A DNA stretch of 45,970 nt from Raillietiella orientalis (taxonomy: Eukaryota): NCBI GenBank assembly GCA_036172245.1, contig JAYWIR010000006.1:5952001-5997970 (forward strand). Direction: 5' to 3'. The position numbers and the translations under genes were made by a program. Positions 956-23,984 of the stretch are shown piece after piece; positions within the stretch are counted from its first letter, which is position 1, and each line of letters begins with the position of its first letter. The notes under the pieces are model-generated. The model was not told the origin of the DNA and ran no database searches. It saw only the letters and a list, made by a program, of their open reading frames with translations.

Positions 956-1009
956 CCTCAGCTCAGGAACAAAAGAGTCCCAAAGATCGGCGAACGCGGA
1001 CCCAAAGAG

Positions 1010-1350
1010 TCTGGGAGTCAAGGAGAGACCTTTCAGGGCTTCAAAAGTTGATCGGTTGAACCACGGTCAGATGAAAGTCTCGCAGAGTTGCGCAAGCAGC
1101 TGGAATGCCGAATTCAGGGACTCCGAAAACGTGCTGCAGGCCGATCGTCCCCCCTCGGTGGTTCGAAACCCACGGATTTTGCTCCTTTCGTGCTGCAGCC
1201 CTCCTCCTCACCTGCCAGCTTCACTGGGGCGCGTCCTCATGGGTGGCCTGGAAGCGAACAACTAGGAGCACAGGGAAGCGCCGTCTTTTGAGCGGTAGGC
1301 AAGCACTCCGTGGAGGCTCTGGGGATGCATCTCTGCGTGCTGCTGGCGAC
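1010..1350 (+). mobile_element. Highly degraded Tx1-like ORF2 3' fragment
   Basis: AAGTTGATCGGTTGAACCACGG resembles AAGTTGATCAGCGGCTGGTCCACGG in copy B. AALLL..LHWG resembles SALLLLHWG. Confidence 0.4.
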
Positions 1351-1520
1351 CGTCTCCTGTTTCGTTCGTAGGCGTTCATCCCTTTCCCAAGCCCTAGCCT
1401 GTTTGCTCCCTCGGAGGACAAAAGCGTCCCTTTCCTCCTGCGTCCTCTCTTTGATTAACCATTGAGGAAATGCCACAAATTAAAGGTTTCTTTTCCAGTG
1501 CAAATCAAAATCCCAGAAGC

Positions 1521-2889: not shown

Positions 2890-3869
2890 AACCGAACGCT
2901 TTCTCTTCGATCCCGACTGATGAAGAAAGCCCTTGTTGCATCTCAAGAAGGAAGGATTGCCGTCAGCTTTTCGTCTCGCCCTCACCCTGAATCAGCTGCC
3001 ACCTGAGACCGAAACCAAGGCGACCCAGAGCAGCTTGAAAGCAGCACGCGCCTCACCAGGCGCTCATCTTCCTCAGAGATTCTCGATGAGGGAAGTTCCG
3101 CTTTTCTGAAGCTTCGGATTCGCGACCACCACCCGCCACCACGGAACCTACCACTGACTTCTTCACCGGGTGACGTCAGGGGAAGCTGCTTCGGGTACGC
3201 TGAGCCAAGCAAAGCTGGAATTCCGGCGACTCCTTTTGGTATCGGCTGAGGCGATCTTTCAAACTCAATAGGGTCGTTCAGTCAGATCACGGAAGTAGGG
3301 ATGTAATCTGCTCCCGCGGGATTCATCACGAGCAGACCCTGCCGCGCCCCAGTTCGGGCTTTCGCGTGCGATCATCGTCCAGCCCTGGACACGGAAACTG
3401 GCCTTCCATAGGGAGTTCGGCGGCGTGGCTGCAGAGCCCTGAAGTTGCGAAGCCAGAGCTCCGCTCCCGGGATTCTTCCTCGTTTCAGTATGCGCAGATG
3501 CTATGCAGAGTGCGGACTCCATCGGCTTCGCAGCACTTTCCTCCTTCACGTCATCCTGTGCATGCAGATAGCGACTTTTGGACTGATCCAACGGGCGTTG
3601 CTCCCTCTCTGCTGGACGTGCTTCCGCAAAACGACTTCCAGGAGAGGTCCGCAGCTCCTCCTCGAGGGTCCAGTGTATTCCCCTTACATCACCGGATCCC
3701 GCCCCGGAAGGTACCCTAATGCTTCTCTCGAATCGCCCAAGAAAAGCAACGCGTTGGTGTTGAAGGATGATGATGACGGTTCCGGGTGTGGCAGTGGCAG
3801 AAAGTCGGATGCCCCCCGTTAACCGGCCTGAATCGAAAGTCGACCGTCCGGGGCCCCCTTCCAGGACAT

Positions 3870-4105
3870 TGAGGAGTTGGCGGCGTTCCTATATCCAGGC
3901 TTCCGTGGTCGCGGTTTCCCACTGTCACGACTCCTTACCGTGATCGCGGCCGGGGGTGGCCCGTGAAGAAGCGTCTTGGAGTGCCCTGAACAAGACAATT
4001 GTCTTGTTCAGAAACGCGACCAAACAAAGACACACCCTGGTGCCAGGTGCGGGAAGATTTCCCTTCCTCTCATTGTATTCGCCAGGGTCTGGAGACGCGC
4101 CCCCC
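3870..4105 (-). repeat. Unclassified repeat Y, copy 1
   Basis: Reverse complement aligns to 16575-16810; shared words include CTCCAGACC, CTGAACAAGACAA, CCAAGACGCTTCTTCA, GGAGTCGTGACAGTG and GGAAGCCTGGATA. Confidence 0.8.
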
Positions 4106-4212
4106 TCCTCCCCCTCTCCGGTTCAGTAGTGACTGTATGCGTAGCTTGGGACGGACCACGGCAGCCGGAACCGCAACAAGAGGTGAACCACGAAGGCGCT
4201 GCGGAGAAGGAA

Positions 4213-4710
4213 CCCTCGTCGCGTATCATGGAGCTGGTAAACTGATATCTCTCCAGAGTGTCAAGAAGCTCGCCGCTTCCTCCGGGTAGAGGCCCTTTAG
4301 GGAAATCGGAAAGCATCCCTCCGGGGTTCTCTTCAGAGGAGGAAACAGGGAGCGGATCCTTTCCGGAGGTCCTCCCGGAGAAAAAACAAAGAAGCCGTCC
4401 CCTCTGGGGAGTCCCTCCGGAAAGAATAAAAGACAGGTTTCCTTTGGGGTTCCCTTTGGAGACAACCAAGACGCAGATACCATTCGGGGTTCCCTCTCAA
4501 GAGTAAGAGGAGGGACTCCTTCCTCTGGAGCTTTCCTGGATTCATGGGGCGGTCCTCACGGGGTCGCCCTTCCACCTTAACCTGAAGAGCGACACGCGCC
4601 TCCAGGTGGTATGGACAGCTTCAAAGAGCTTCATGAGTGCCGTAAGGGGGAGGCGAATGGCTCTTCAGTACTTAGCGAACGAAAAAAAGGAAAAGCACGA
4701 ATCCAGAGAA
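4213..4710 (+). repeat. Unclassified repeat X, copy 2
   Basis: Colinear with 14112-14600; shared words include TTTAGGGAAATCGGAAAGC, GTCCCTCCGGAAAGAATAAAAGACA, GGGACTCCTTCCTCTGGAGC and CCTTAACCTGAAGAG. Confidence 0.85.
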
Positions 4711-4889
4711 ATTCGTGGTCGCTGAATCCGTGAAGCCGTAGAGTTCTCAAGAAATCTCATAGATTCAGTTCCCATCATCGTCATCTTCCTGCGAAAGGTC
4801 ACAGAGGTCTCCTGAAGCCGAATGAAACATCAAGCTCACCGGCGAGGGAGGCCCTCTCAGCACTCCTTAATCTCACCTAATTTCTTCGT

Positions 4890-5362
4890 CCGAAGGAACT
4901 AGGTGATTGAACCACGGGACAGCTCACAGACGCTGCGACCCTATGTACCTCACCGAAAGGACTACTGCACTGGGGTGAGCTGCTGGGAATCCCGCGGGAA
5001 GACCTCGAGTGGCCCTCAAAGCTGAAAAACAACCGGCAGTGGCAGGAGTCGGCACTTCTGCTGTTGCACTGGGGTCTCCCGTGCAATGCCCGCCGGTCTC
5101 ACTGGACCTGGGGGACTGTGGACCCCAACTACTGCAGGTGGGGGGAACGGGAATCCCTCCCACACCTGCTTGTAGACTGTGTTGCCCACCGGCCCCTGTG
5201 GTTGAGTTACACAACGGACCTTGGTGCACCGACGGACAATCCCAGGGACATCTCTTTCGTGAGCGAAGCCCTTTCGCCTGCCGCATCCCCAGCAGCTCTT
5301 GGATGCTACCTGTGCGAGCTTACGGCGGCCTGAGCTACTCGAGGGGAGCACGGCACGATAGG
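4890..5362 (+). mobile_element. Degraded Tx1-like ORF2 3' fragment
   Basis: Reads GLLHWGELLG..WQESALLLLHWGLPCNARRSHWTWGTVDPNYCRWGERESLPHLLVDC, homologous to copies A and B. Confidence 0.9.
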
Positions 5363-5366
5363 TTTG

Positions 5367-5830
5367 AACCCGGTCACGCCGGGACGTTTATTCCACAAAA
5401 CAAAACACAAACTTGAAGGGATCCGCCCAAGACACAAGAAACGCCCATACAAAAAGTTCAACCCGGAAAACCACCAGCACGTAGGCCGGCTTCAAAAAAG
5501 AAGGGAGCGGAGGGACAGGACACAAAATAAACAAAAAAACAGGAAAGGGTGGAAACAGGGTTCTTTGTTATGAAACAGTCCTCTTCTTCTAGAAGCGCCG
5601 CTTGACGATGGCGACTTTTCTGGGAAGATGAAGCTACCTTGCAACTGTCTTCATAAGGCTGGCGGCTATCCTTTCTTCGCGAACTTCCTTCGACCTTTCT
5701 GCGGGCCGTCACGATGGCGCGGATGCAACAGATTGCTGCGACCACAGCGCCTTTGGCGAAGGACTCGCAGCCCTGTTTGCCGCCGGCTCCCATCCTGCGG
5801 CTTCCCTCTCCGGTGTGTCGCGACTCTGGT
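5367..5830 (-). mobile_element. Degraded Tx1-like 3' end
   Basis: AAICCIRAIVTA motif, T-rich UTR and terminal AATAAACGTCCCGGCGTGACCGGGT on the minus strand. Confidence 0.8.
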
Positions 5831-5837
5831 GAGGGTG

Positions 5838-6963
5838 AACACGTGGATTCGCTGCCGCCCTGCAAATACTCCGGCCTGGCGGCAGGAGAAAGTGAGAACG
5901 TGGGTCCAGATCACCCGAGCCCCGCCGGAAGCTACCCGCTGCCAAGAGTTTCAGGAGAACAGAGGAAGAACACTGGAAACAGTGGGTAGTGAGCTGACCA
6001 TGTTGGCCTACCCACGAGCCATCCCCTTCGCCGCAACTGTGCCCTCCGCTGTCCATGTACATGGCACCTGCCTACCGGGGAAGTGGGAGGTTTCTTGCGA
6101 GATCTCGGCCTGCAGAAAGCCTATCAGTGGCTGGACTCCGCAGCAGCTGGTTGACGCGGCAACAGCAAGAACCGTCTCCAAAGGACTGGAACGTTGGGGA
6201 GAACTCTTCTCCATTCAGCCCGAAGAGTTGGAAGTGCCACCGTGTTCATTGACAAGAATCTGCCTCCCCTCAAGTGGGAGCAATCAGCGCTGATGATACT
6301 GTAGTGGGGTTTTCCGTGTAATGCGCGCCGGCACCACTGGATGAGGGGAAGCGCATCTCCAAACTGTGCCAGGTATGGAGAGAAGGAGACTTTCTCCCAC
6401 CTCATAGTGCAGTGTGTCGCCCTCCTGGAACTGTGGGAACTGCGTCCCTTCCTCACCCTGCGGACGATCCCAAAGACTCTTTGAGGTTCCTCTTCGTGTG
6501 GGACGCCATAACGCCTGCAGCCGCAATCTCAGCTCTGTGCTGCTTGCGCGCTGTCGTCGCGGCGAGGTGCAACGCCGAGGGAGGCCAGAGCGACGGGGGA
6601 ACTGTCCCGCACGTCATCCGCTTCCTGCACATAGCTTTGGGATGGCCCCACCTGGAAAGGGAGAAGGAGGAGCTCGCCAGCATCCTTCAACGGATGCAAA
6701 GGCCTCACCCACCACGAAATGTGATCCCTTCCCTTCCCCCCCAACTAATTTTTGTTTTTGTTTTATTTTTTTTTTTTTTTGAGGGGGGATGCTTGTTATA
6801 GTTTGTTTTCATTTTATATTTTGTTTCATCCTCCCTTCCCATTCGTGGATGTGATGGACCTCTCCGGCTGCCTCCTTCTTTCTGGTATAACAATGGGATT
6901 TGATGGGCCATCGGCTCCATCGATTCCTGTAACAGAATAAACGCCCCGCCGTACCCGTGTGTG
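5838..6963 (+). mobile_element. Degraded Tx1-like ORF2 3' part plus 3' UTR
   Basis: Reads WIRCRPANTPAW..KWEVSCEIS..GWTPQQLVDA..ALCCLRAVVAA..WPHL, followed by TGATCCC, a poly-T tract, AATAAA and a degenerate terminal hairpin. Confidence 0.9.
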
Positions 6964-7925
6964 AAATCACAGAGCCATTCTTCAGTCCGCCTTCGCTGAA
7001 GAAGCGTTGTAGCAGGTTGATGGCAGTGTCCTGGGGACGACGAAGTGCCGAAACAAGTCGCCGCCATAACTGCCGCAAGTCACTGAAGTCCAGAAGTAGG
7101 TGCGGAAGCGATTCTATCGCCCCGCACATGAGGCAGTTCGGGGAGGCAGCTTCACCGGAAACCAGGTTTCTCGCTGATTGCACTGGAAGCCCCAGTGCAG
7201 GAATGGCAGAACATCCTGTTCCCAGCGAAGCGGGAACGCACAAAGAAGGGACCACCAGTTCTTCGGGGGGTACACCAAGAAGTTCACTTCACTGAAGGAG
7301 TCCATTTGCACGGTGATGAGGAGTGGCAGCATCCACCAAATCGCTCGTTTTGCAGCCGCTCAGGAGATTTTCGACTCCTGCAATCCTGCAGGAGAACTCC
7401 CACCCTACCGGTTGGCTACTATCGTTGTTTGCCCTGAGGGCAGATAGCGCTGCGGCCAGGGGTGAGACGGCTACCCAGGACCAAAGCGCCCCGTCCTGTA
7501 GGATGACTCCTAGCGGTCTGCGTAGGAACCCTATAGAGGTCGCAGTTGCTCTGGACACACATCCAAAGTGGAAGTCCACTGTTCCAGAGCTTCCTGCTGC
7601 CATGCATTCCAGTTAAAGGGGCGTCAGGTGATCCAGGAATGGGCTAAAAACAGCGAGGACAAATGCCTCAGAGAATAGCCAAATCCAGTCCTCCGGCGTA
7701 GGTTGAGTGGCAACAACGAAAGAAGTCCTGCACTGCCGACGCATCGCTGGAGGATATGGCGAGCCGAAGCACACCAGTGAGATGACCACAATTTCCGACA
7801 TAGGGAGAGAAGCCGGAACTGTACCTGCGGTCCAATCTTCTCGATGGTCAGGATGCCCAAGCCAGTTTCCTGGAGTGGCGCCACCAAATCTTTGAGGAGA
7901 ATCCGGGATCGTGCAGCGCCCACAA
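6964..7925 (-). mobile_element. Degraded Tx1-like ORF2 internal/3' fragment (divergent subfamily)
   Basis: Reads RILLKDLVAPLQETGLGILTIEK and CLMCGAIESLPHLLLD; cut off at the 3' terminus of the plus-strand copy. Confidence 0.85.
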
Positions 7926-7929
7926 GGTT

Positions 7930-8327
7930 TTACGGTGGAGACGCTGCGCCCGGAGTTTCACCAAATAGGGGGGGATGGCACGATAGGAACGCCATCTGCT
8001 TCGCTTTGCGCTTCCTGCAGACGGCAGCAAGAAGGCCCCATCTGGGACATACTCAGATGGAAATCGCCGGCATCCTGGAAAGGATGTTGAGGACGCCCTC
8101 CAGCTCCCGGTGACCTCTTCCCTAACCCTCCCAATTTTTTGTCTACATTTTTTTGTTTATTTTTCATTTTTTGTTTGCCTTCTCCCCTCCTCCGCTGCAG
8201 AGGAGAACCTTGCTGGCCTGCATGTCGGTTACTCGGCAGGTTCCGAGCATTTTCGGACAACGTAGGTCCAATGGCCTTACAAATGCATGTTTATTTTTGA
8301 TAACAAATGTCCCGGAGTGACCAGGTG
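7930..8327 (+). mobile_element. Tx1-like extreme 3' end
   Basis: Reads HDRNAICFALRFLQTAARRPHLG..GILERM then a stop, a T-rich UTR and terminal CCCGGAGTGACCAGGTG. Confidence 0.85.
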
Positions 8328-9039
8328 ATAAACCTTCTTGGAACGCTTGTCAGAATGGATCATGTATTCTAGGTCACGGACAGTTCAACTGAGGTCTTCT
8401 GTGAGCATCTTTCATCTGCCATCCAAATCAAGCACGTACACACTTTCATCTTGACAACGTTCTCAGATATCCAGAGGGCCTTCGAGTTCTCCGCAGTTCC
8501 ACCAGCACTCGTGGGGGTAAATTTTGGTTTCACGATGAAACCGTTCCGTTCTCCACGTGACCAAATCTTTTCCCTGGGGAGTTGATCAAGGCACTCCTTA
8601 AACGTGTGGTTCTCTGAAGCATCCAGCTCACCTAATAGGTGAATGTTGAGTCACTGCTGTTTGCTTGGTACACAATCAAATTTTCACCGATAAAGGACAC
8701 ACAAACCAATGAATTGCATGTGTCCTTCATTCCCATCCGTGGTTTCTATCTCCCTGTGCTAAGGACGCGAAATGGACGGCATCAAAAACGTGCTTAAATG
8801 ACTCTTTAGGGGATGTGTTTTAATGGAGAAGACAACAAGAAAGGCATTCGATTTTCATGGCTTCAGAAAGGCACCAGAGAATTTCCTGCTCGCTGGAAAA
8901 CTGCAATGCGGTTTCAGAATTCTGCATTTCCTTCCCATTTATTTGTTCTTGAAGTTCTCACTTTTAGGCACGTCTCCATTACAAACATCGCAGCCCAAAA
9001 GAGAAAAACTTCAATAAGACCAGCCACTCTTCTCCCTGT

Positions 9040-9990
9040 TTGCTTCACGCTACCAATGTTTCCAACTTTACTGAATGGCAGAGCAACCTTCTAAATCCCA
9101 GCAGGTTTTTCTCTTCCAAACATCAGACTGTCTTTGTGGTGAGCGAACCCATGAATGCTGCTCTTTACGAAGAGCTGCCGGCTGATAAAAGCAGGATGAA
9201 CATCACGGTCGCCAGTTGGACTGCCATCGTGCAGGTTCCTTTGATCGGAACGTCAGTAAGAACACTCGCTCAAAGTGTTGAAAGATGTGCTGACCCCGTT
9301 GCCCGAGCCCAACTTGCCCAATCTTGTGCATGTCTCGGTAGTTCCGAAGTCGAAAAGAAGACAACTTGCGGAAGACTCAGCACCATTTCCCTAGAAGCAC
9401 CGGAAACAGCGAATCTGTTGAACGGGTTCCGTGTGTATCATGCTGTCATGGAAGTGCGCATCAATAACTGTATGGACTCTGGAAATAGCCCAATGAAAAA
9501 CTCATGAAAGGAATGCTCGTAATAGACTCACTTGGTGAGAATTTTGGTTCACTTATTCAACAACAGTTCACCCTTTATTACTGCGCTGAAGAAATGCAGG
9601 AAAATTGTTGAGAATGTCTTGTCGGTGATATCAGAGGCGGAGGGTTTGGGAGGTTTTGTTTTGCTTGCTTGCTTTTCGCTTTGCTGGGAATCCTTTCAGA
9701 TCCATCGAAGGGAGCTTGCGGAGAATTCAATTCTTTGTCTTCGTGGAGAAATTCAAGAGCGAAGGAATATTTTCGATTTTTGAAAGAAACTGGTCTTCTT
9801 CCTTGGACTCTAGGAAGACAGAGAACATCCAATCTAAACTGGCTGCAAAGCTTACTGCAATCTCGAGTTCTGGGGTAGCGTTGGAAACCGTAAAGACGAT
9901 GGAATCTGGCAGTCCCTGCTGTCGTTTACAAGAAGGAGACCAAAGCTGCTCTTACAAATAGTATACCTTTTCATGTTACGACCGCAGAAC
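9040..9990 (+). pseudogene. Possible degraded coding sequence of unknown origin
   Basis: ORFs 9040-9507 and 9532-9783 share one frame, and the frame continues protein-like through a few stops. No family recognised. Confidence 0.25.
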
Positions 9991-10089
9991 TGATCGTCCA
10001 ATAAGATAGGAGCTTCAAAGCTTTAGGCTCGGCTCATCTTCCAAGACAAGACGTCGATTGCTGAAATCCTAACTGGTATTCCAGAACTG

Positions 10090-10445
10090 CAACTTGGATA
10101 ACGCCCCTATCTTTTTTTCTTCGGACGCCTTTCTCCACGCCGCCACAATCCCGCAGATGCAGCAAAGCGCTGCAAGGGTTGTGGCTGACTACAGAGCGTC
10201 CCGCACGAAGAGGAGCCGTAAAACATTCCTGGAGGTGCCAATCGGGATTCCGACTGTCGTTCCGAAACGTCCCCATAGGGGCCGGAGGGCAAAGCAGTCC
10301 ACGAGCAGGTGCGGAATCCCGTTGCCCGCACCTGCGACTCGCGCTCGCCCTTCCCAGCGTCCAATGGTGTCGCCGTGCGTTGCAAGGAAGACCTCAGTGC
10401 AACAGCATAAATGACGCCTCCTGCCAATTCAGGAAGAGCTCTCGA
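10090..10445 (-). mobile_element. Degraded Tx1-like ORF2 zinc-finger fragment
   Basis: Reads WQEASFMLLH*GLPCNARRHHWT..PHLLVDCFALRPLWGRF..LAALCCICGIVAAW. Confidence 0.9.
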
Positions 10446-10619
10446 CTGCATGCGCATTGGGAACTCACAAGCGACTCCAACACGACCACAACTATGTTAC
10501 TAAGAATCTGACGTGAAATCTCAGTCTAACGAGTCTGTAAAAAAAGTCAGTCCACTGAAATTGTCGGACATCATCACATCCACGGATACCTGGCTCAACC
10601 GTGCGATACTTACCTGGCT

Positions 10620-12240
10620 TTGACGCATTCTCGGTGCAGTTGAGTCAATGGAGAAGACACTAAGCTTGAAGATCAATTCCCGGAAGTCGCATCTGTTGCT
10701 CATCGGCACCCTGCACCTCTCCGCGATAACGGAGAAAAGATACCACGAGAAATGCGACGTCGAATATCTGGGCATCCCCATCGGTGGCGCCTCATCTTTG
10801 CAGCTGTTGTGGACAGAATCCTGGAGAAAGCACGGGAAGAAGCAGCGAAGTGCGTCCGAGTCGACATCAACGTGAAGCAGAGGGCTAACTGGTAGTACGT
10901 CATGATTCTTCCCAAACTACTCTTCGGGGCCGCCTTCTAGCGCGTGGACAAGAAGACAAGAACGGAAGTAGAGCAGCCGCAGAAGAAGAACATCTGGCGG
11001 GGGCTCCAGCCGCGGGTCGGGCTCAAGGTGTTGTGCCACCCGCGAGAGGAAGGTGGGACCGGGATGAAGTCGCTGTCACAAAGTGACCACGTGGATGCGC
11101 GACAAATCTTGGTTCTCACTATCGAAATGGGGCAGTGGCCTTAAGCACCTCAAAGAGCTTACTCAAAGCTGGTTAACAATTCGAGTGACCTGATGTCGGC
11201 GCTCATAGGCAAGCATGGAGAATGGGAGCAAGAAGGGAGAAGGGAGAAGGGAACAGGCACCGGTGGGAAAACACCATCTCAAGATAGTGCCGCGAAGCAA
11301 ACAACTGTGGAACTGGCCATGGTCATCCCGTACTTTGCACCGGTACCCAGGGAAACCTGGAAGTGGATATTTCAGAGACCAGCAATGACCATCCGCGACT
11401 GCGAACAGTTTGCGACCAGTAGCAACTAGTAGTCCACAAGATGCAACCGTTTCGCTACGGGCGAAGTATTAGAGGAAAATTCACCTGCAAAAAGCGAGAG
11501 CTTTGGAAACATCAGGCAGCCAACGCCTGGATCCTGGCAACCAAAGTCAACATCCGCGACATAATCATGGACAACTACCGGGAAGTAGATGTCCTCGTCA
11601 CGGCTGCCAATCGCTACGGGACCAGAATGGCGAATCTGCATGCGGCTGGAACTACAGTCTCTGAGAGAGACTTACCACCAGACACTCAGTAATGTTATAC
11701 CATGGAGGTATTCTTAGTGAAGCAGCATGAAGTACTGAACGGAAAACATGGATGAAGAACTCTGCAAGGCGTGTGGCAGCAAGGAAACCCATCTCCACGT
11801 CCCCACCTGCCCGACCCTGCGCCAGGATCGGAGCACGCTGAAGGCGACGACTGGCCTGCAGAGAACCACAAGAATGTAGATTTTGGCGAGACTGTTCCAT
11901 GGGAACGCAAATGAACAGCATTACAACCCAGTGGCTCGGACCACCATCTTCCTCTTCACCATGAGCGCCGTGTTAAGAAGGGCAAAGATGAGCAGCACGG
12001 GGGATACAGCTCCTACAGTCAACATGCTACAGGCACTGATCGAACGACAAACGGGGACCAGAAACTGCGGCAGCATAACCGCCTCGACGTTCCGTTACAA
12101 TCTTGAAGGAGATAGTGGACGTTGCTCAAGCGAGTGAATTGCCCTCTGACTCCCAGCAACCCTAACGAAACTTTGGATCAAGTATGTGAATCAGTATGCC
12201 TGAATTCGTTGTGTAAAAATGTGTTGATCAATAAATTGAT
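10620..12240 (+). mobile_element. Degraded 3' half of a second, distinct L1/Tx1-clade family
   Basis: RT thumb motifs LKINSRKS and EYLGIPIG, then LCHPREEGGTG, zinc finger CKACGSKETHLHVPTC, and AATAAA near 12230. Many stops and frameshifts. Confidence 0.75.
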
Positions 12241-12429
12241 CTTCCCTCTGGTCGGACTGGAAGAGTCACAACCGCACAGCAAGCGTCTCGAACTCTTGTC
12301 GTGAGAGCTACTCAGGCGCTGCAAGAGTGCAGCGGGCAACTCATCTACTGCGTAATCGCGAGATCAAGTCAAAAAAAAAAAAAAAACAAGCACAGGAAGT
12401 CGGCCACCGTGTGGCTGCGGCATCCGCTC

Positions 12430-12695
12430 GTGGCACCAGGTGCTTCAGGTTCGAATACTGAGAAAGGGTCGACGCCAAGAAGGGCGAGTCCCTCCTGCAA
12501 GATGACGCTGGTCGGCCTTATAGAATTCGGGTGCTGCAATCGCCGAAGTCGAAAACCAAATGCCCTCGTTGAGTGGCCGAAGTTGGAAGCTCACCCTCCG
12601 GGGTCCCTCAGGAGTCAAGGAGTCAACTGCCTTCAGTGTCCATCTCTGGTTGTGACTCTGGAGCTGTCCCCATCCCCTCGATGAGTACCATGGAG
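12430..12695 (+). repeat. Unclassified repeat X, copy 3, left part
   Basis: Aligns to the reverse complement of ~722-950, e.g. GGTCCCTCAGGAGTCAAGGAGTC versus GGTCCCTTTCAGGAATCAAGGAGTC. Confidence 0.75.
12645..12695 (+). repeat. 51-bp direct repeat, left flank of the bacterial mosaic
   Basis: 46/51 identical to 14084-14134. Confidence 0.9.
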
Positions 12696-12698
12696 GGT

Positions 12699-12851
12699 TC
12701 TGTACTCTGTTAGTAAAATGGAGGCTATGAGAATCATGTACAGTGTAACCATAACAGTGCTTTTGCTGTACCCAAGAAAATGCTTTGCGTTGAGCTCCTG
12801 CTTGATAAATTTAAAGGACACTTCTATTGACCAACGTTTTTTATAGAGATC
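12699..12851 (-). pseudogene. IS4-family transposase fragment (bacterial)
   Basis: Reads DLYKKRWSIEVSFKFIKQELNAKHFLGYSK, containing the IS4 Y-R-E-K signature. Confidence 0.8.
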
Positions 12852-12864
12852 ACAGATCTCTATA

Positions 12865-13080
12865 GCCGGTAATTTCAGCTATAGCATCTATAGAGACACC
12901 GGCCTTAAGTGAATTTTTAGCCACTTCAATCTTTCCCTCATCAAATTTTTGTTTAAGATAGGATAAATTATCATCTTTACGTTTCTTACCTTGATCATAC
13001 GTAAAACGCTCTTCTTCACTCCAATTACATTGGTTCAACTCATCATAAGCCTTGCCAATAATCTCATCACTTCCTATTAC
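12865..13080 (-). pseudogene. Rpn/PD-(D/E)XK nuclease-family C-terminal fragment, Wolbachia-like
   Basis: Reads [47 protein letters not shown], which I recognise as the typical Wolbachia Rpn C-terminus. Confidence 0.85.
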
Positions 13081-13084
13081 ACCG

Positions 13085-13183
13085 GTAAATCTCGGTCACG
13101 CTTATTATGCTTCAGGTGATTCTCAGAAGGCAAAAGAGTTGTTTGAACGAGCTTTAGCAATTCAAGAGAAACGTTGTGAACCT
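13085..13183 (+). pseudogene. TPR repeat fragment, Wolbachia-like
   Basis: Reads [29 protein letters not shown], one kinesin-light-chain-type TPR unit. Confidence 0.75.
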
Positions 13184-13192
13184 TATCGTCTG

Positions 13193-13399
13193 ATGTTCCG
13201 TGCGAGCCCAAGGCAAGCGGACGTTAGGACTGCCGCCGCCACTAACAAAATGGCAGCGGCATTGCGTAAGGTATACGACCAAATGGCAGATCCAAAGTAC
13301 GTTGTTTCTGTGGGAAGTTGTGCAGATGGAGGTGGCTATTATCATTACTCTTATTCAGTAGTTCGTGGTTGTCATAGAATTGTGCCAGTTGATGTGTAT
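13193..13399 (+). pseudogene. nuoB: NADH-quinone oxidoreductase subunit B fragment (alphaproteobacterial)
   Basis: Reads [64 protein letters not shown]. Conserved residues are altered (MIVAGT lost, MGSCANGGG changed) and both ends are missing. Confidence 0.93.
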
Positions 13400-13545
13400 G
13401 ATATCACTACTAAAAATGCGGAAGGGAATACAGTTTTACATTATGCTGTAAAATTAGATGAGAGAGCAAAGTATGAATTTACTGAGCTTATACTGGAAAA
13501 AAACAAAGAGTTGGTAAATACACTGAACAGAAAGGAGCAAACACT
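13400..13545 (+). pseudogene. Ankyrin repeat fragment
   Basis: Reads [38 protein letters not shown], with the GxTxLHxA ankyrin consensus. Confidence 0.75.
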
Positions 13546-14083
13546 CCTCTGCTCTCTTGATCAAACGTTTTACAACTCTTTCTTTATAGCGTTTCATAAT
13601 ACTCAATTCCTTTTTCTACGTATTCCCACCATACTTGAGCATACTATAAAATATGCATGCTATTTTTCTTGCAGTGGCTGTTATTGCTTTTGGCGCTCCT
13701 AATCGTTTTTTTAATCTCCTGTAGTATGCACCCAATGAACTTTTACTATTGCCTACGGAATTAGCAACCATTCGTAAGGCATTTGCAGCACGGTTAATGA
13801 CTTTACGCGTTCTTGTATTAAACACTTTTTCCCCTGTAACTTCGTTAGTAGGGCTGAGTCCCAACCACGATGAAAAGTGCTTTTCTGGCCATTTATTATG
13901 GTTCACACCAAATTCTGAAATTATGGTTTGTACAGTTACTACATCAAGTCCAGGAATTTTAGTAAAATCCATACCAGTTATTCGGTACAATTCTTCATGC
14001 AAAGCAAAGCTTGGCTTACTTTTTCTCTGCTTATTCTTTTCCTTACTCAGCTGTTTACTTTTGCCAGATTATGTTTCAAACGT
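13545..14083 (-). pseudogene. IS110-family transposase C-terminal half, Wolbachia-like, with stop and frameshifts
   Basis: Reads [62 protein letters not shown], then in shifted frames [11 protein letters not shown] and [16 protein letters not shown]. Confidence 0.9.
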
Positions 14084-14600
14084 TCTGGTTGTGACAGTGG
14101 AGCTGTCCCCATCCCTCCGATGCGTACCATGGAGCGGCTCGATACTTCTCCAAAGTGTCAAGAACCGCACTGCTCCATCAGGGAAGCGTCCATTTAGGGA
14201 AATCGGAAAGCGTGCCTTCGGGGTTCTCTTCAGAAAAGGAAACAAGCAACGGATCCTTTCCGGAGGTCCCCTCCGGAGAAGAAACAAAGGAGCGGTCCCC
14301 TCCGAGGGGTCCCTCCGGAAAGAATAAAAGACAACCAAGACACAGGTTCCATTCGGGGATCTCTCCTAAGCGTAAGAGGAAGGGACTCCTTCCTCTGGAG
14401 CCTTCCTGGATTCATCGGGTGGTTCTTCCGGGTCGCCCTTCCCCCTTAACCTGAAGAGTGACACGCACCTCCAGGTGGTGTGGACGATGTCAAAGAGCAT
14501 CGTGAACCCTCTTTCCTCACCCACCCACTTCTTAAGAAGGAAAATGGCCCTTCATCACTTCGCGAACCCCAAAAAAAACCCGAAAAAGAATCCAAAGGGA
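14084..14600 (+). repeat. Unclassified repeat X, copy 3, right part (starts with the second 51-bp repeat, 14084-14134)
   Basis: Colinear with 4213-4710 and with the reverse complement of 300-660. Confidence 0.85.
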
Positions 14601-14624
14601 TTTCCATCATCCATGAGCCGCCCA

Positions 14625-15574
14625 CAGAAGATGCGATGGGCCTCGTCTACCTTTTCTTGCATCGGTGCTGCCTTCCTTAAGGGACGCAGAGGATAGAGTA
14701 ATCCTAGCGAGGTGGGAAGTGACTTGCTTCATAGCAGCAACGAAGAAACTATGAAGGGCGTGCACAACTGGAGAAGTGACGAACGCTTGGACCTCGAATG
14801 TCCTATCCCATGAACTTGTACGCTGGTGAGACCTGCTCGACAACATGAACATTCCTTCAAGGAGGTGAATTGGTCCCCAGTGTGCTGGAACAGTGGCGCC
14901 CTCCCCCCTCAAATGGCAGGAGTCGGCGTTGCTGGTGCTGCATGGGAGAACCCCTTGCAAGGTGCCCCTTCACCACTGGATACGGGTGATCAGTGAACGC
15001 TCAGAGTGCGACAGCTGCGGGAAGAATGCATCCTAATGCACCTGTCGTTGGACTGCACTGCCCTCCGACCCCTTTGATATCGCTGCTTCGCAACGTCCCT
15101 GGGTATCCTGGTGAGCAGCCCCAGGGACATTCTCAAACAACTCTTCGTGCGGGGTGCCAACCGCACCCCTTGAAGTTCTCAGCTATATTCGTGGGATCTT
15201 GGCGGTCTGGAACGCTAGAGAAAGAGGCCCAAATGGCAGGCACGCCATCCACTGGGCGCAGATCTTTCTGAAGTCCGCCTCGAGATGAGCCCGCCGGGGC
15301 GAGACGAAGGAACTTGCCAGTATCCTGAACAGGATCCAGAGGACGCCTGGCCTCGTACTGTGATCCCCTCCCCATGTATAATTTCCCCTCCCCTGTTTTT
15401 CCATGTTCTATTTTTTTTTGTTTTTGTTTTCCTCTCCCCTATGCCGCCGAAGCGGACCTTGCGGTCTGCGTGCCACTCTTCGGCAGGTTCCATGCACGTG
15501 GTAGAACCAGGGGTTCTACCACACCAATGTATTCTTATTGCTTTATGTAATGAATGCCCCTGCATAACCGGGTG
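14625..15574 (+). mobile_element. Degraded Tx1-like ORF2 3' part plus 3' UTR
   Basis: Reads ASVLPSLRD..RWEVTCFIA..LKWQESALLVLH, followed by TGATCCC, a T-tract and terminal CCCTGCATAACCGGGTG. Confidence 0.85.
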
Positions 15575-16574
15575 ATACTCGTTCACGAGCAGCCTATTTT
15601 GATCAGAGAGCATTTCGTCTATGGCCCAGCAATCATGAGAGAACACAAGAAAAAGCAGCACCACATGAGAAGAAACTGCATTGCTGTATGGAACGGACTG
15701 CAAATCACTCCTTAAGAGACCTGAGCGAACACAGCAGCGTTGCTCTCTTTGTGCCGGTGAAGCTTCACAGTAACGGCGAACACAGAACGAGTTTCTCTCC
15801 CTGTGAGCAGCAACTAGTTGGAAAGATGGAATGAAGATGGCAGATGGACCGAGTATTGGAATATCTCTGTGCATCGTTGTGTTAGAATTCCGTCTTATAG
15901 ATGCAGCTTCACTTGAGAAGGCCGGGCTGCATATCGAAGCCAGTAGAAACAAATCCTTCCCTTCCCCCAACGTGTTCAGCTGTGAAGCCATTTGCAAAAG
16001 GGACCATTTTTATGGAACCGATCTGGAAGGCTGATTATTCAGCGATTATTCAGCCTCCTTTGCTCATCAGCAAATTCCTATGGAGTCACGTGCCAACTAA
16101 CGCGGCAACAAATAAATAGAACCTGGACTGCTGAGACACCGAAATCACCCTGTGGATTCAACAAATGGTGATTCGATTCCCAGGATGGAGTGCATTAGAA
16201 TTGCCTTCGGCTATGAGTAAGTGCTCACGACCGAGACAGTCAGTAATCTGGACATCATCTCTCACCTGAAAAACCTTCCGTCCTCATGGAATACATACGC
16301 TTCTGAAATGCACGACCGACTCGCAGGACGGGGCGCGACCGGAGGGCTGGCAGGAAGCAAGGAGACATTGGCTTGGTGAACGGCTCCTCAACTTGCCGAC
16401 TCTGTCAGCTCAAAAGGAATTCTCTCGGGGGCACTTCCTAGGAAAAAACCATCAGAAGAAGTGAAGGGTCTCTGCGGAGTCTTTGAACAGCTCCGTGTAC
16501 TTCTCTTAAAGAGTCAAGACTCGGCGTTGCGACAACTGCAGGGGGCTGTCCTATGCTACGCACGTCGTCACTAC

Positions 16575-16810
16575 AGGGGGAGTGTGGCTCCAGACCGTGG
16601 CAAGTGCATTGAGAGGAAGGACAACCTTCCTGCACCTGGGACTAGGGTGTGCCTCCCTTTTCGTTCGGTCACGTCCCTGAACAAGACAACTCAGAGGGCA
16701 TTCCAAGACGCTTCTTCATGGGTCATCCGCGGCCACGATCATTGTTTCCGTGGAGTCGTGACAGTGAGAAATCACGACCCTGGAAGCCTGGATACAGGAA
16801 GGCCACCTTC
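16575..16810 (+). repeat. Unclassified repeat Y, copy 2
   Basis: Homologous to the reverse complement of 3870-4105. Confidence 0.8.
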
Positions 16811-19800
16811 TTCGTCTTCTCTTTCCTGGAGATCACGCAGAAATGGACAAACCTGAGGCATTACAAAGAGCAACTTTGCCAGCTCATGCTGCCAACAACT
16901 AATTGCTGAAAGCAGATCCTTCTCCTTTCAAAGCTCAGCGAAAAATGGGAGCTGCTCCCTCGAGTACATGCCATTTGAATCAAAACACAAATTTTAATTT
17001 TTGATCCAATGCTCTAAAGATTCAACGATGCATAGATTGAAATTAAAGCTGGGATATAAGACTTCTTCACTCGTTCAAGAGGAGGAAGGAATTTTATCGA
17101 CAACTTAAAAAGTTCGAGCTGTGGATGAAGACAAAGATGCTTTAAAAGACGCAAATGAATGGAGATGAATTCCACTCTCAGACCTTTAAGAGTAGAGATA
17201 ATCACCAAGACTTCCAGAACTGGAAGTCTTCGTTTTCCAGACTTGGAATTCTGTATCCCGTGGTGATGTTGCATCATCATGGGCTCTATATGGATCCATC
17301 TACAAACCTAAACGATGTGATTTCAAGAAACCTGAGAGCCTCGAATTTCTTTTTGTGTGACCATTCCCGTCTAAAGAAAGTAAAGATAAGTTCAATGATT
17401 CCATACTTAAGCTGGAAAGGCATTCGCGCAAGCCGAGATGCCGAGATGCACATCAAAGCTGCAAACTTCCTTGAATCATAGTAACTCGTGCAAAATTCAA
17501 GAAATTAAGCTGTGTTCACCCGGAAACATCAAGAAGCAACTTTTCTGTTATGCCGTATTTTTATTTCAGATGGCATTTCTGATTGTAAAGCAATATTGGA
17601 TTTTGAAATGGAAAACAGAATGAAGGCCGGTAGCTTAAGCTTAGTTGAGGACCACAGTCATTTTTTAACGAAGGAAAGAATGTTTTCATTTCTTTGAAAC
17701 TTGGTACATGCACTTATTCCTAAAAAATTCATACACAAAAAGATGACTAAAAGAATTCAAATCATTTAATACTCTTCAAAAGACTACACAAGCCACTCTT
17801 GAATAATAACCGTTTCGTAGAGTGATTTCTTTGGAAATGATAGTGATTTCCTTATCAAGTACATGCCATCAAAAAGTTCATGCTTATTTCGTACGTTAAA
17901 AAATTAAATTGAAAATTGGCCTTGACAGAGAAGAATGTTGCTCAGAACAAACAGAATTCGAAAGAGCAGATAAAATATCCATCAACTCCACTGTTCAGTA
18001 AATAGAGTGGCTAAGTTTCGAAAAGAGAATTGCAGGCACAATTTATGAATCGTTCATTATCAACTGGTAGGTCCACAACCTTGTCCTTCCCATAGCAGTT
18101 GAGCATTTGAGTACTGTTTGCACTAAGAATTCAACTCACAATCTTGATGACAAAAGGAACCTTTAAAAGCATATTACTAAACGTGCTTTGGAGTTTTTTC
18201 TGTTGATACCTTTGATAAAAGTCAGTGCTATTCAAAAATATATGCTTGTGAAGAATGTTAGCTACAAGAGAAAAATTTGATTTCGATCACATGAATGTAA
18301 GGCTGAAACAAAAGTGCCCCTCATCTACTTGATTATTCTGAACAGATATCGCATTTGCATAATTGATAACATCTCAAAGGCTCCTTAAAAACGGATTGGA
18401 ACTGTTTGACAAGAAACCAGCCTACGTCCGTATGCATTAATTTACAAGTCCCAGTAGAAGCAAGTCCAAATTCTTATGGAAATGTGAATCTCCTATTAAT
18501 GCTTGAGATAGAATCTTGAATGGGCACCTCAGCTGTTTTCAAAGAGCGATAGTAATGGTTACATTGCTTCTTCAATCTTAGGACGATTTTCTGAATCTTA
18601 ATCATTTCTATCTTGTTTGTCCCCTATTATACGTTTAGAAGTGAAAAACATACACAGACTTCTCGAAGAGTTGGGGTTGCACAAGATGTGTCTGCACGTC
18701 GAATTTCCAGCCACTACCCCAAATCCTGTTTTGCATACAAACTTATGTTCCAAATCACCGTCGTGCTCGGTGGATTCAAGAAATGGAAATGTTTTTGTTC
18801 GGCCCTCACTCCAAAGAGAGGTTCACGGTGACTAATCTTTGAAAAGAGTTAAACGTCAAAGTAAGCTCCGTAGGAAAAACAGTTTGCTCCCCTAGACACT
18901 TCTTGTTGGAAAAAAAAAAAAATCGCAAGGAAACTAATGTGAGAATCATATCTTCCAATTTCCTGTTTCGAGGAAAGACAAAATGATACTTTAAGAAATA
19001 AACAGCATTTTCTGGGCGGTGTGAGAGCTTTCTGAAACGTTCCTCATTGCAATAAATGAGCGAGGTTTTCAGCAGCTCGTTCCATGCGGCTGCAACGGCA
19101 CGGAGCAGATGAAAACTCACCATTTCGTGGACCCTCCCCCTACTCGATGAAGAAACCCCTGTGGTGCCCAAGGCTACCTGCTTCCCACACACGAAAACGG
19201 CTCTCAACATTTGTGCAGCAGGCCACAACCATTCCAACGGTAAAGAAGAAAATCACCTCCACGGAGATGATTCTGCAGCTTGAAGAAAATCGAGTTGGTG
19301 CAAGATGAGCACGAAACCGAAAAATCGGCGAAGTGGGACATTCGGTCCGACCCGGGGTCGATTTTTCTTTTTCGACCAGCATTCTCCCTCAATGGAAACC
19401 ACCGGTGCTAGTCCGATGCCTCCACGAATGCCCGCAGCAAGTTGGCTGCTGCCTTGCTGCATGCTGAGGACGGAAAACCGAAGACCGGACGTGCCCGCGT
19501 GTACGAACAGGAAGCTGGCATGTGCAAGTGGAACTCAGTGTGCTCCACAGAGGTTTTTTTCTGTTTACAACTCCAGCTTACAGGATGTCACGTCCACAGG
19601 GGACTTCCGCCACCATGTCACAGTCTCATGTGCTGACCTTAAGGAGCCCACTGGGCAACCCTGGGTGTGGCAGTTCGGCCGTTCCGTCCAGGACGTTGGA
19701 GCGGTGGACCGCTGAGTTCATCGAGCAGCGAAGAAATCTTTTGGTACACGGATGATGGGAAGAACTCAGATCGAATGCTGAATTGTGGTATGTGCTGAGT

Positions 19801-22800
19801 TGTGCTACTCGCGGAAGCATCCAAAATCTGTTATTGTAAGGTACTCAAAACAAAAAATGTAAATACCATTATTCTTTTGTGATAGAAATAACCACACTAA
19901 ATTAATATGCTTGCATTTTTTTGCTTCAAACGTAAAGATTTCAAGGAAAAAGTGCGGAAAAATGGAATTTAATTCAGGGTTTAATATCATAAGACTTTAG
20001 TTTTACTTTCCTGGTAAGCATTAGCCAGGGGAGTGTCCATGTTTTTGAAAACCCATCTCGTATGTAGAGAAAACTATTGCAGTTTCAAAATTTCAAAATT
20101 TCCTTGTGTTGAGATCATCTCTCTATACCTGAACCTTTAATGTTGTTATTCGCAAACCTGTGTTTCTGTTTTCGTGTTTTAGTTTCAGAGACTTGCCCAA
20201 GCAAACAAAGGCTTATTTTCAGGCTACAGTTTTGTATTTATTTCTTTTTGCCATAGATTCTTGCCTTTTTTTTAAAGATTATTTAGTAATCGAGAATTGG
20301 TAATCAGTTCTCAGATTCTGAATATTGCTGATATCCGTGTTTTGTGGTAGATTTGAATGCACATATCATTCTCACTTTGAACAGTTTGAAGTAAGAAAGA
20401 ATGAAAGTGCCATCCTATAAATGGTTTATGCTGCGTAATAGAAGTCCTTTGGAACTTTGAATTGTTCCTTGTAATTCAGGGAATACGATTGAACACTGTC
20501 ACTTAGGAACAGTTTGAGGGTAGTATGCAAATATGAAAGTTAAGTAATAGTTCTTCATCTGCATGCTATACAGCCCCTTTTATGGAACCTTCTGAATGAA
20601 TGTGAGCATAAAAGAATTCAGTTAATAAACAGAACTCAGCTTCAGTCATTTTTAATAAAAGAAGAGCTTTGGAAATTGCATCACAAAGATTTTGTGACCG
20701 ATAGTGTGTAATTTTTTAGGTGAATTATGTAATGTACATTGCTAAAGCTTTTAAAACTTTTTTAATTTCAGCAAACAGAAGGTTTGTTGTTTTATCATGG
20801 AACAGTTTTCCTTTCAATTTCAGTTTTTTTTTTCAGAAATGTTCACATGATATTGTGTTTCTTGTTTTTTTGCTGGAGTTCCGAAATTTGTTCTGTAGTA
20901 TTTATGAACTGTGTTCAGAAGCTTTTCTGCATTCTCCAGTAATATGCTCCTTTAAAAAGAGGACAGGGTTTTTATGTCACAAAAATCACACATATATGAG
21001 TAGAGGGAATTATTTCACATTATATTCATTTACTTACTTTGAATGTTTAAAATTCCATGTTTTCTTTCTGATCTATTAGCTTTTGGGGGGTTTCATATGT
21101 GCATCAACTATGTATTTTTGACAATATTGACCATCTGTTTAGCAGAACTTCTTTTCAATGTATGTTATTAGGGTTAATGGTTTCATTAAGTAATATGAAT
21201 AACCCTCTGTGGTAGTCATCCTCTGATTAATTAGATGAAATCTCTAGTTTTTGTAAACTGCTGCTCTATGTCACAAATGCATAAAGGATTCCTCCAAAAG
21301 AAGAAACAAGACTTCACAATTGTGCAACACAAGAGAAGTGGTTACAATTAATGGTGCAGGAAACCTTTGAAAGAAATGAACATCAATTGTTAAACTTTGG
21401 GACATGCGTCATGCTTGTCTTTCTAGGTGACTCTTCATTTTGTAGAAATGTGGAACTTGTGAAAACATGTTTTGGTTGTTCAGAAATAACAACAACATAC
21501 TTATTTAGAAATTGTGATGATAGACAAAAAACGTAATCATAGATTGCTTCAAAAAGATGCATTTTCAGCATATGCTTTACTGCTTTGGTTACGAAGGAAT
21601 GCTTGAAAAGTGAGATCATATTTGCAGTTCTCTACACTGTTTTCTAAAGCAAGTATTTTTGCATCTTATGAAAAAAAGAATTTGCTTTATTCATTTTATT
21701 GGACAGTATTACGAGATATTCTTGCATGACAAAATGAATGAAGTAAATTAGCATAGCTGATCTGTGAAGCAGTGATGAAACGAAAACAAGACATAAAGTC
21801 CATACAAAAAATTTAAAACCACAAAAATGTGTGCCTTAATCCAGACAGTGAACATGTTCTGTGAAATTGGAAATTTGTAAGAATTGTACTTGCTAGGAGT
21901 ATAAGATTTGCTTACTGGGAAGTTTTGGACTGCATTGCTAATCACTGATTCAGCATGATTATTGGTCATCCAGAAAAGTACTCTTATCGGGTATATAGGG
22001 GAAGTCAACATGTGAGCTTTTAATAAGTTGATGCATGTTAGCATTCTAATTGGCGACAGGTGTGCAATTTAGTGTTTAGAAACTTTTTTTCTTGATTTTA
22101 ACACCTTTTTTAAATCATACATCAACTATGCTTTATAAGCTTGCAGATGATGTCTCATTAGATAAGGTTTTTCAACGTTAAATAGGATGGATTTTTCCTC
22201 AACAGAGTGCATATCTTATCATTAGAAAGTTTCTTTTATCATGTAAATTTGAAATCTTTGATATCTGAGATGCAAAAATATTTTGAATCTTCTTCAAGAA
22301 ACAAAGTCAGTGCAGTTTGTGATGAAGTTTAGTTATGAAAATAGCAAGTCTGTTGGGGTTAAGGAGTATTCCTTGTATCTCTTACATTATGTTGCAATGC
22401 ACAGTGGAGTAACAACATAACTTCGAGTAGAGGAAATGTGCATTTCATGCGCAAAGTGTGCATGCAGCTTGCAAAATGTTAACATGATATGCCATAAGTT
22501 TTTCTCGTAAAAGTATAAACTTAAATTAAGATTGAGAAAAGAGATTAAATGTTTTTCCAATCATATTAAGGTATATGTATGAAAATAGAATTTGGGATTC
22601 TTATTGGCAATTAACTGGTAAATTACTGTGTCCCTATGTTGAAAATTACCTGGTTAATTTCAAAAATAAACTACATAATATAACAAACCACACAAACAAT
22701 GGAAACTGGAATTTTCCATTTGAACTGTTGTAGTGGGCACATCTGTGAAGTTCTTTTTGTGCAATTTCATAACTGTGTAAGTTTTTTTCAATGCATTATT

Positions 22801-23642
22801 AATATGATTGCTAAGCCTCAGATCATACTTGCATGCAAAATGTATAAAAATATGAAACCTCATGTACTTATTCCTGAAAAGATTAGTTTGCTCAAAGGTG
22901 TTTCATATGTACAATTGTCAATTCATAAAAGATTATTTCATTTGGACTAGCTTATACCTGTTTTTATGTGTATGCCCACGCTTGCAGTCATGCATACCTC
23001 CATTCCAAAGTAAAGAAATACTCTGCTGCAGCAAATGATTTCCTGAAAACATGTATGGTCTAGTGGACAGTGGAAAAGAGATTCATGAAAACTGTGTTTT
23101 TCAGGACTGTGTAGTTTTTTATCGATGGTGCAGTTTTGTTTTCCTTGAAGAGCATAGGGATAATGATGGGCAGTTGTCGTTATGTATTTGAAGTATTGCA
23201 ATTGCCATACAGATTCATTCCATATTGTTTCTGTAAATTCTAATTTTCATGACTTTGTCTTCAGTTGTTGTTGGTATTTCCTTTTCATGTATTTTCCACC
23301 AATGTCCTTGGGAAAACTGTAAGCCTTCTACTGCTGATGAACTTTTCCAGCATTTGTTTTCCCCAACATTGTCGCCATAAAATGCCTTGTTAATTTTTGA
23401 TGTAATCTTCAGAGTATGAAAAATAATCTACTTTGGAGCATATGGAGCAAGTGATCACTACCTTTTGAAGCAAGATTACATACAATGTGGTATTTTTCTG
23501 GTACTAGGGTCTTTGTTATATATTTTCTGCATATGAGTTTACAAGCTTGAGTATGAAACTTGTATCACAATTTAGAAGCAACTTTCACTTCAAGGAAACA
23601 TCAGGATTTTTTTTTTTTTCGCACATAGTTTAGTTAGCACTT

Positions 23643-23706
23643 TTTCCAGTCATGGAGGCCATCGTTCTGGATCCTCCAGCATGATGATGGTTTCCATGAC
23701 TGGGAA
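23643..23706 (+). ncRNA. Candidate pre-miRNA-like hairpin 1
   Basis: TTTCCAGTCATGGAGGCCATCGT pairs with ATGATGGTTTCCATGACTGGGAA at all 23 positions (4 G:U), with an inner CTGGA/TCCAG stem. Confidence 0.3.
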
Positions 23707-23926
23707 ATAGAAGATGAATTCGTTGTCGTTTCTGTTAGCGGGACCATTGTTGGGCGTAACCTCCAACCATCCTGGCATCCTGGTAGTATCTCTAGTTCTG
23801 GAAGTGGCTTTTTTTTGTTGCTGTGCTCTCTAGGTATGTTATTATGCTGTCTTGTGCTGCAGAATCCTTCTCTAGGGAATTTCCTGTTGTTCGAGGCCTA
23901 GTTTACTGCTTTTAAATTTCTTTTTT

Positions 23927-23984
23927 ACACTGGTCTTGTATGAGCCTCCCTCTGATCACTGAGAGGTTCATGTGAGACTGGTGT
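23927..23984 (+). ncRNA. Candidate pre-miRNA-like hairpin 2
   Basis: 23927-23948 pairs with 23963-23984 at all 22 positions (16 Watson-Crick, 6 G:U), with a 14-nt loop. Confidence 0.3.

Follow-up and report, generated by a model that had tools for sequence, protein, structure and literature searches.

Composition of the cassette

The stretch of Raillietiella orientalis DNA analysed here (contig JAYWIR010000006.1, positions 5,952,001 to 5,997,970), which at its full length of 45,970 nt we call the window and within which all positions below are counted, contains at 12698-14084 a cassette of 1,387 bp with a guanine-plus-cytosine (GC) content of 38.3%, the 2-kb flanks having 53.1% and 52.3%. The cassette is composed of six abutting gene pieces, which from left to right come from an IS4-family transposase, an Rpn/PD-(D/E)XK protein, an NB-ARC/TPR protein, nuoB, an ankyrin-repeat protein and an IS110-family transposase (Table 1). 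There is no spacer between the pieces, and the sole unassigned bases are GG at 12696-12697, at the left host junction. All six pieces map to the interiors of donor open reading frames (ORFs), and each is therefore truncated at both ends. We regard the cassette as probably a complex nuclear Wolbachia transfer (nuwt) that has since decayed and that, on this reading, has no function and evolves as junk.

A sequence-only reading of this DNA, made without database searches, had described six unrelated Wolbachia-like gene fragments stitched together with almost no spacer, each truncated at both ends. All six were recovered in the order and on the strands that it gave, with ends within 1-2 nt; the near-absence of spacers holds, GG being the only exception, and so does the truncation of every piece within its donor ORF.

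We assigned the pieces on the basis of their own translations and of DNA matches to Wolbachia genomes, the limits of each piece being set by blastn against the best donors. The IS4 piece matches Pfam DDE_Tnp_1 (E 2e-7) and NCBIfam NF033592 (IS4; E 6.5e-16), and its DNA is 95% identical to Wolbachia G014:C1:395322-395489. The IS110 piece matches NF033542 (E 6.9e-25) and is 87-88% identical in DNA to six copies each in genomes G016 and G057. For the nuoB piece the translation matches NuoB NF005012 (E 1.3e-29), and the DNA is 84-86% identical to Wolbachia, with the best value of 86% in G020, G047 and G023. The TPR piece is a single unit (TPR_2, E 5e-6) with 73-84% identity to tandem TPR units in locus L095 of G001 and 85% to G014:C1:1076235, and its donor ORF carries NB-ARC and TPR_10 (E 3e-26). 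Its limits are fuzzy, similarity starting at about 13071 or 13085 and ending at 13183 or 13191.

Two labels are weak on the translation of the piece itself, namely Rpn (TIGR01784 Rpn, E 9e-4) and ankyrin (Ank_2, E 0.089, not significant alone), and are secured because the DNA matches clearly assigned Wolbachia donor ORFs. The Rpn piece has 89-92% identity over sub-stretches and 71% contiguously (G055, G014 and G045), and the matching donor ORF, L114, is PDDEXK_2 (E 4e-50); the ankyrin piece is 94-95% identical to G037:C10 and G038:C25, with a donor ORF assigned to Ank_2 at E 5e-22. In some genomes the Rpn piece resembles two sub-pieces. Since in G050 and L090 both halves belong to one gene, where a variable repeat linker separates them, we counted Rpn as one piece and the cassette as six in total.

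Table 1. Positions of the cassette, its pieces and related features in the window
Feature	Position	Strand	Remarks
Left copy of 51-nt target-site duplication (host)	12645-12695		inner end abuts the cassette side
IS4-family transposase fragment (DDE domain, C-terminal part)	12698-12866	-	internal to gene; donor ORF aa ~176-231
Rpn / PD-(D/E)XK 'transposase' fragment (C-terminal part)	12866-13079	-	donor aa 204-279 of 291
Single TPR unit, Wolbachia NB-ARC/TPR protein gene	13080-13183	+	donor aa 501-536 of >582
nuoB fragment, decayed	13184-13400	+	72 of ~173 codons; donor aa 75-146 of 173
Ankyrin-repeat protein gene fragment	13397-13544	+	donor ORF aa 426-475 of 806
IS110-family transposase fragment (C-terminal half)	13545-14084	-	donor aa 276-459 of 475; nonsense change and broken frame
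217-codon stop-free frame	13049-13702	+	runs through TPR, nuoB and ankyrin pieces in one phase
Right copy of 51-nt target-site duplication (host)	14084-14134		inner end abuts the cassette
Host dispersed repeat, right flank	14122-14505		78% to 4221-4636; 67% to 663-333 (14147-14505, other strand)
Second mosaic, piece 1	24674-24740		89% to G001
Second mosaic, piece 2	24741-24794		94% to G037/G014/G032; phage-WO HK97-type major capsid gene
Second mosaic, piece 3	24795-24833		87% to G040
Second mosaic, piece 4	~24840-24887		81-89%

Wolbachia origin and scattered donor loci

When the cassette was searched against 60 Wolbachia genomes, all 60 matched, with E values per piece of 1e-44 to 6e-191, far beyond what chance would give. 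Identity to these genomes is 73-95%. In an evenly drawn order-level sample of 251 genomes, with two candidates scored per genome, every listed match outside the genus covers nuoB only. At the protein level the nuoB piece (residues 34-105) is 81-85% identical to most Wolbachia-titled records and 76-78% to two divergent ones; records with other titles reach at most 79%, apart from one 'Rickettsiales bacterium' at 82%, which groups within the Wolbachia clade in our tree. In this maximum-likelihood (ML) tree of 30 nuoB segments, the window sequence lies within a 22-row Wolbachia clade with support of 97/96. It is placed next to sequences from Tettigetta, C61_2, Mansonella ozzardi and G014, but the support of 88/67, from a nuoB piece of 217 nt, is too weak to name the supergroup of the donor. 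The matches point firmly to Wolbachia, and not to another bacterium or the host, as the source of the cassette. The donor genus proposed in the sequence-only reading is therefore borne out by the genome matches and the clade; the nuoB phylogeny that it suggested for the supergroup places the piece in Wolbachia and does not extend to the supergroup.

The pieces trace to scattered donor loci. In G014, a single-contig genome, IS4 is best matched at 395 kb, Rpn at 304 and 77 kb, TPR at 1,076 kb and nuoB at 540 kb. The loci are similarly scattered in G043 and G050, the tightest pair being IS110 and nuoB, 17 kb apart in G050. Distances between donor loci range from 17 kb to several hundred kb, and the loci are not collinear in these three single-contig genomes. 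No match spanning two pieces was present among the listed matches in the 60 Wolbachia genomes. The junctions were also absent from 50,697 phage records, where only the IS110 part was found (two WO phage records, 76%), and from 72,556 plasmid records, which gave distant nuoB matches only; the 23-mers across the nuoB/ankyrin and ankyrin/IS110 junctions had 0 matches each in metagenome contigs. It had been expected from the letters alone that the pieces would map to scattered loci and had been concatenated during capture. The mapping agrees with the first point, and the lack of any contiguous arrangement in the Wolbachia genomes and in the phage or plasmid records agrees with concatenation of unrelated fragments at or before capture.

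Junctions and insertion into a host repeat

We examined the junctions by extending each donor without gaps past the join, and similarity ended abruptly. The IS4/Rpn junction shares 1 nt, the nuoB/ankyrin junction an exact 4-nt TATG (13397-13400) and the junction of IS110 with the host 1 nt, while the ankyrin/IS110 junction is blunt; these four well-resolved junctions are accordingly blunt or carry microhomology of 1-4 nt. There is no filler at the junctions except GG, which matches neither the IS4 donor nor the sequence past the right repeat copy. All joins are between gene interiors, and none is at a natural terminus of an insertion sequence (IS).

A direct repeat of 51 nt, which the sequence-only reading had not mentioned, brackets the cassette exactly, with 46 of the 51 positions identical between its two copies. 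A 17-mer of this repeat occurs only at those two sites in the window, where 0.08 occurrences are expected by chance. The flanks belong to one dispersed host repeat family, to which the left flank (12567-12655) shows 74% identity through 813-723. In a paralogous copy on the reverse strand, at 860-520, only one segment resembling the 51-mer separates the part homologous to the left flank from that homologous to the right; the anchors are 60 nt apart, the expectation being 52 with one 51-mer and 103 with two. From the single 51-mer in this paralogue and the repeat that brackets the insert, it follows that the whole cassette was inserted at once into a host repeat already in place, with duplication of a 51-bp target. 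The cassette thus represents a single insertion event into an old copy of a host retroelement family. With the paralogue from 4221 onward each copy of the target duplication shares different states, and this fits independent decay of the copies after duplication.

Repeat flanks, target duplication, the single-copy paralogue and ORFs of long interspersed elements (LINEs) on the contig support, within the assembly, that the cassette is embedded in host DNA. ORFs of LINE-type APE endonuclease and reverse transcriptase (RT) are found at 27183-29539, 31444-32745, 37736-38575 and 41395-42498, and with several such ORFs on the contig the setting is a repeat-rich region of a eukaryotic chromosome.

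Decay of the cassette and the 217-codon frame

At 964 sites conserved among donors we counted 45 substitutions private to the window (4.7%), of which 31 are AT>GC and 9 GC>AT. By codon position they fall 14:12:19, and 26 are nonsynonymous and 19 synonymous. The copies of the target duplication differ from each other by 9.8%, half of which accords with the 4.7% seen in the cassette, and both figures fit one insertion followed by neutral drift.

The nuoB piece has a 6-nt deletion, and its translation is altered at seven positions where 19 donors agree (M>R, I>T, V>A, G>A, M>V, N>D and D>H); N>D falls inside the SCANGGG motif, and N>D and D>H affect residues that are invariant in Wolbachia. With only 72 codons the piece does not amount to a functional full-length NuoB, the 20-kDa subunit of complex I, and the N-terminal CC and C-terminal GCPP motifs, as seen in the NuoB protein P0003, lie outside it; CC, GCPP and SCANGGG are motifs that we take to be iron-sulphur (Fe-S) ligand sites, of cluster N2. 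In the nuoB tree the terminal branch of the window sequence is 0.2, the median being 0.058. In the IS110 piece the codon at 14069-14071 has changed from lysine to stop, and the reading frame is lost before 13616. The nonsense change, the loss of frame, the deletion, the replacement of invariant residues and the drift toward GC together exclude contamination by a live symbiont. The cassette evolves as host DNA, with bacterial constraint lost.

At 5% divergence about 3.5 stops are expected in 430 codons, and about 2 disruptive events were observed, both in IS110. The other 279 codons have 0 stops, and this shortfall is not significant either way. A stop-free frame of 217 codons reads three same-strand pieces in a single phase. 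The chance of two in-phase joins among three such pieces is about 1 in 9, and no protein with a TPR-NuoB-ankyrin architecture was found among 8000 candidates scored, whose lengths were 119-380 aa and whose matches were all plain NuoB. (The top candidate, P0001, is a 220-aa NuoB from an 881-bp ENA contig with an internal tandem duplication of about 40 residues and is unrelated to the window.) Because the NuoB part has lost invariant residues, constraint on the frame is argued against, and the frame is probably fortuitous.

A second mosaic and the rest of the window

The window contains a second, smaller Wolbachia mosaic at 24674-24887, composed of four abutting pieces of 39-67 nt each. No flanking direct repeat was found for it, and the low-GC block around it shows no other likeness to Wolbachia. 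In a comparison with five Wolbachia genomes, no other Wolbachia DNA was matched in 1-12695, 14084-16850 or 26201-45970.

Low-GC blocks (0.19-0.40) at 1400-3000, 17000-19000 and 19800-25800 interrupt repeat-rich DNA with a GC content of about 0.55-0.6. Apart from the micro-mosaic, these blocks had no match in the five Wolbachia genomes and no Pfam match in the six ORFs tried; they could be unique host DNA, another class of repeat, or DNA from another donor. Scans of the window with Rfam and for tRNAs found nothing, and a LINE RT ORF matched only generic clusters of eukaryotic RTs in a protein atlas. The DNA from 26000 to 45970 contains nested and inverted copies of one LINE family with 72-89% identity (for example, 26877-28082 and, inverted, 32251-33456), which carry APE endonuclease, RT and a zinc-knuckle ORF. 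Segments of this family also occur in the host repeat into which the cassette was inserted; 14904-14980, for instance, matches 33767-33843 and others.

How the cassette may have formed

The simplest reading is end-joining of DNA shards that were then captured where a chromosome had broken with staggered ends. At least six separate parts of a Wolbachia genome would have supplied double-stranded fragments of 100-540 bp, these would have been ligated to one another by the end-joining repair of the host, and the resulting 1,387-bp concatemer would have been captured once, at a staggered chromosomal break inside the old retroelement-family repeat. Fill-in of 51-nt overhangs would then have produced the 51-bp target duplication, and the insert would later have drifted as junk, changing by about 5% in the direction of GC. 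We infer that the shards were DNA and not RNA, that they were joined by nonhomologous end joining (NHEJ) or alternative end joining (alt-EJ), and that the break was staggered. Because the four well-resolved junctions are blunt or share 1-4 nt, the pieces differ in orientation and neither poly(A) nor a LINE tail is present, end-joining of DNA shards is favoured over template jumping by RT.

Several points weigh against this reading or limit it. When organelle DNA is captured by classical NHEJ, the target is usually duplicated little or not at all; a duplication of 51 bp is out of the ordinary and calls for staggered ends at the break or for a replicative mechanism. With TPR donors of only 73-84% identity, the Rpn/TPR and TPR/nuoB junctions can be located no more precisely than to 8-9 nt. 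The bias toward GC has p 7e-4 against a ratio of 1:1 but p 0.09 against equal rates per site. The 60 genomes do not include the strain that donated the DNA, and some Wolbachia may possess a partial arrangement; moreover, the correctness of the assembly and the copy number rest on internal evidence only.

The main rival, which we consider rather unlikely, is replicative template switching, in which a broken or stalled host end copies several Wolbachia DNAs in the manner of microhomology-mediated break-induced replication or fork stalling and template switching (MMBIR/FoSTeS), or of polymerase theta, and returns to the chromosome 51 bp upstream, the target being duplicated for this reason. Short segments in mixed orientation, microhomology of 0-4 nt (possibly up to 9), the lack of filler and the flanking duplication all suit such a process, and copying accounts more easily than ligation for pieces as small as those of the second mosaic. 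In replicative switching, however, microhomology is usually seen wherever the template changes, and here the ankyrin/IS110 junction is blunt and two junctions share only 1 nt. One locus cannot separate replicative copying from end-joining.

The sequence-only reading had considered RNA templates and RT template jumping compatible with the cassette on the ground that all six pieces are coding. In this explanation, which we find improbable, a host LINE RT jumped among Wolbachia transcripts, and the chimeric cDNA was integrated by target-primed reverse transcription. The window is indeed rich in LINE RT and endonuclease ORFs, and a target-site duplication is a hallmark of target-primed insertion, although it is the only RT-like trait of the cassette. 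The sense of the pieces is mixed (- - + + + -), so that half of them would need antisense RNA, and at both ends Wolbachia sequence meets the duplicated target directly, with neither poly(A) nor a LINE 3' tail. The A-run closest to the cassette, 16 nt long (12371-12386), lies about 310 nt upstream and outside the duplication; it probably represents the tail of an earlier retroelement insertion in the host and not a part of the Wolbachia event. As for the coding content, Wolbachia genomes are mostly coding, with a density of about 80-90%, which gives a chance of about 0.3-0.5 that six random pieces are all coding; this outcome is thus expected in about a third to half of random six-piece draws, and the coding of six out of six is a weak hint of RNA.

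That the cassette is the remnant of a large contiguous Wolbachia insert, cut down by at least five internal deletions together with inversions, seems to us very improbable. Deletion junctions may carry microhomology too, and very large Wolbachia inserts are known elsewhere, as described for the azuki beetle (PMC4046930) and Drosophila ananassae (PMC4299567). Nevertheless, the donor loci here are tens to hundreds of kb apart and non-collinear in three single-contig genomes, the flips of orientation need inversions, the retained pieces are only 100-540 bp, and the second mosaic is built of pieces of 39-67 nt.

We give very little credence to a mosaic already assembled in a bacterium or in phage WO, for example as a scrambled IS-rich region, and moved contiguously. 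Apart from nuoB, the pieces all belong to mobile or repeat gene families (IS4, IS110, Rpn, ankyrin and TPR), families that cluster around prophage WO regions, and a copy of IS110 is present in WO phage records, but the junctions are absent from all the Wolbachia, phage and plasmid sequences searched, and the joins lie in gene interiors and not at IS ends and would cut the essential nuoB. Equally far-fetched is an assembly chimera or a live-symbiont contaminant: the 51-mer copies differ at 5 sites, the paralogue is single-copy, assemblers do not join six internal fragments of 100-540 bp without overlaps, and a contaminant is contradicted by the nonsense, frame-breaking and invariant-residue changes, the last in an essential gene, and by an identity of only 73-95% to all 60 Wolbachia genomes.

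Comparison with known transfers

There is ample documentation of Wolbachia fragments in nuclear DNA, among them IS4, TPR/ankyrin and phage pseudogenes (PMC8962096, PMC3849323, PMC4046930, PMC4299567, PMC12693587). The nuwts or Wolbachia 'genomic fossils' of Brugia malayi, Dictyocaulus viviparus and Sirex noctilio resemble the cassette in being pseudogenised, in their invertebrate-type nuclear context and in their typical gene content. Among the Sirex remnants are IS4 transposases and TPR/ankyrin genes (PMC8962096), and two adjacent nuwts in Brugia come from different parts of the wBm genome (PMC3849323). The cassette differs from these in that six fragments are joined without spacers and a 51-bp target duplication brackets the whole, which fixes a single event. 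A base-level account of a Wolbachia concatemer that combines six pieces and a long target duplication was not found in the portions of the literature searched, and we claim no priority.

Complex insertions of mitochondrial or plastid DNA (NUMTs, NUPTs and 'numins') are also similar: before integration or in the course of it, NHEJ joins non-contiguous donor fragments directly, at blunt ends or over microhomology of a few nt, and end-joining is the accepted route for such insertions (PMC6215612). The donor of the cassette is a bacterial endosymbiont and not an organelle, and its 51-bp duplication is long; such insertions are therefore analogues of the cassette, which is not a member of their class. 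A further comparison is with LINE-mediated chimeric retrocopies. These arise by template switching, as in U6-L1 chimeras, and have in common with the cassette a chimeric insert, a target-site duplication and a LINE-rich neighbourhood, but the cassette has no poly(A) or LINE tail, its pieces are of mixed sense and its donors are bacterial.

Implications

The cassette is well resolved but of a known type, a clean and ordinary case of captured endosymbiont DNA, and it reveals no new kind of element and no function. It offers a base-resolution view of how bacterial DNA can enter an animal-type chromosome, as what would be a patchwork of pre-joined shards arriving in one event, and the insertion is dated internally by the divergence between the copies of its own target duplication. 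It is also of use when bacterial-like 'genes' are annotated in eukaryote assemblies; the 217-codon TPR-NuoB-ankyrin frame could easily be miscalled as a chimeric gene or as contamination. Cassettes of this type are useful for inferring past Wolbachia infection and the lineage concerned.

Because the same 46-kb window has a second mosaic with pieces of 39-67 nt, we raise, with considerable doubt, the possibility that shards of endosymbiont DNA are recurring fillers or templates in the repair of germline breaks and not a one-off. If this is true, many animal genomes with a past Wolbachia infection would carry numerous micro-mosaics below the usual limits of detection. Such mosaics could have arisen in bursts, as bacteria lysed close to germline nuclei, and polymerase template switching, which also makes long target duplications, may have been involved.

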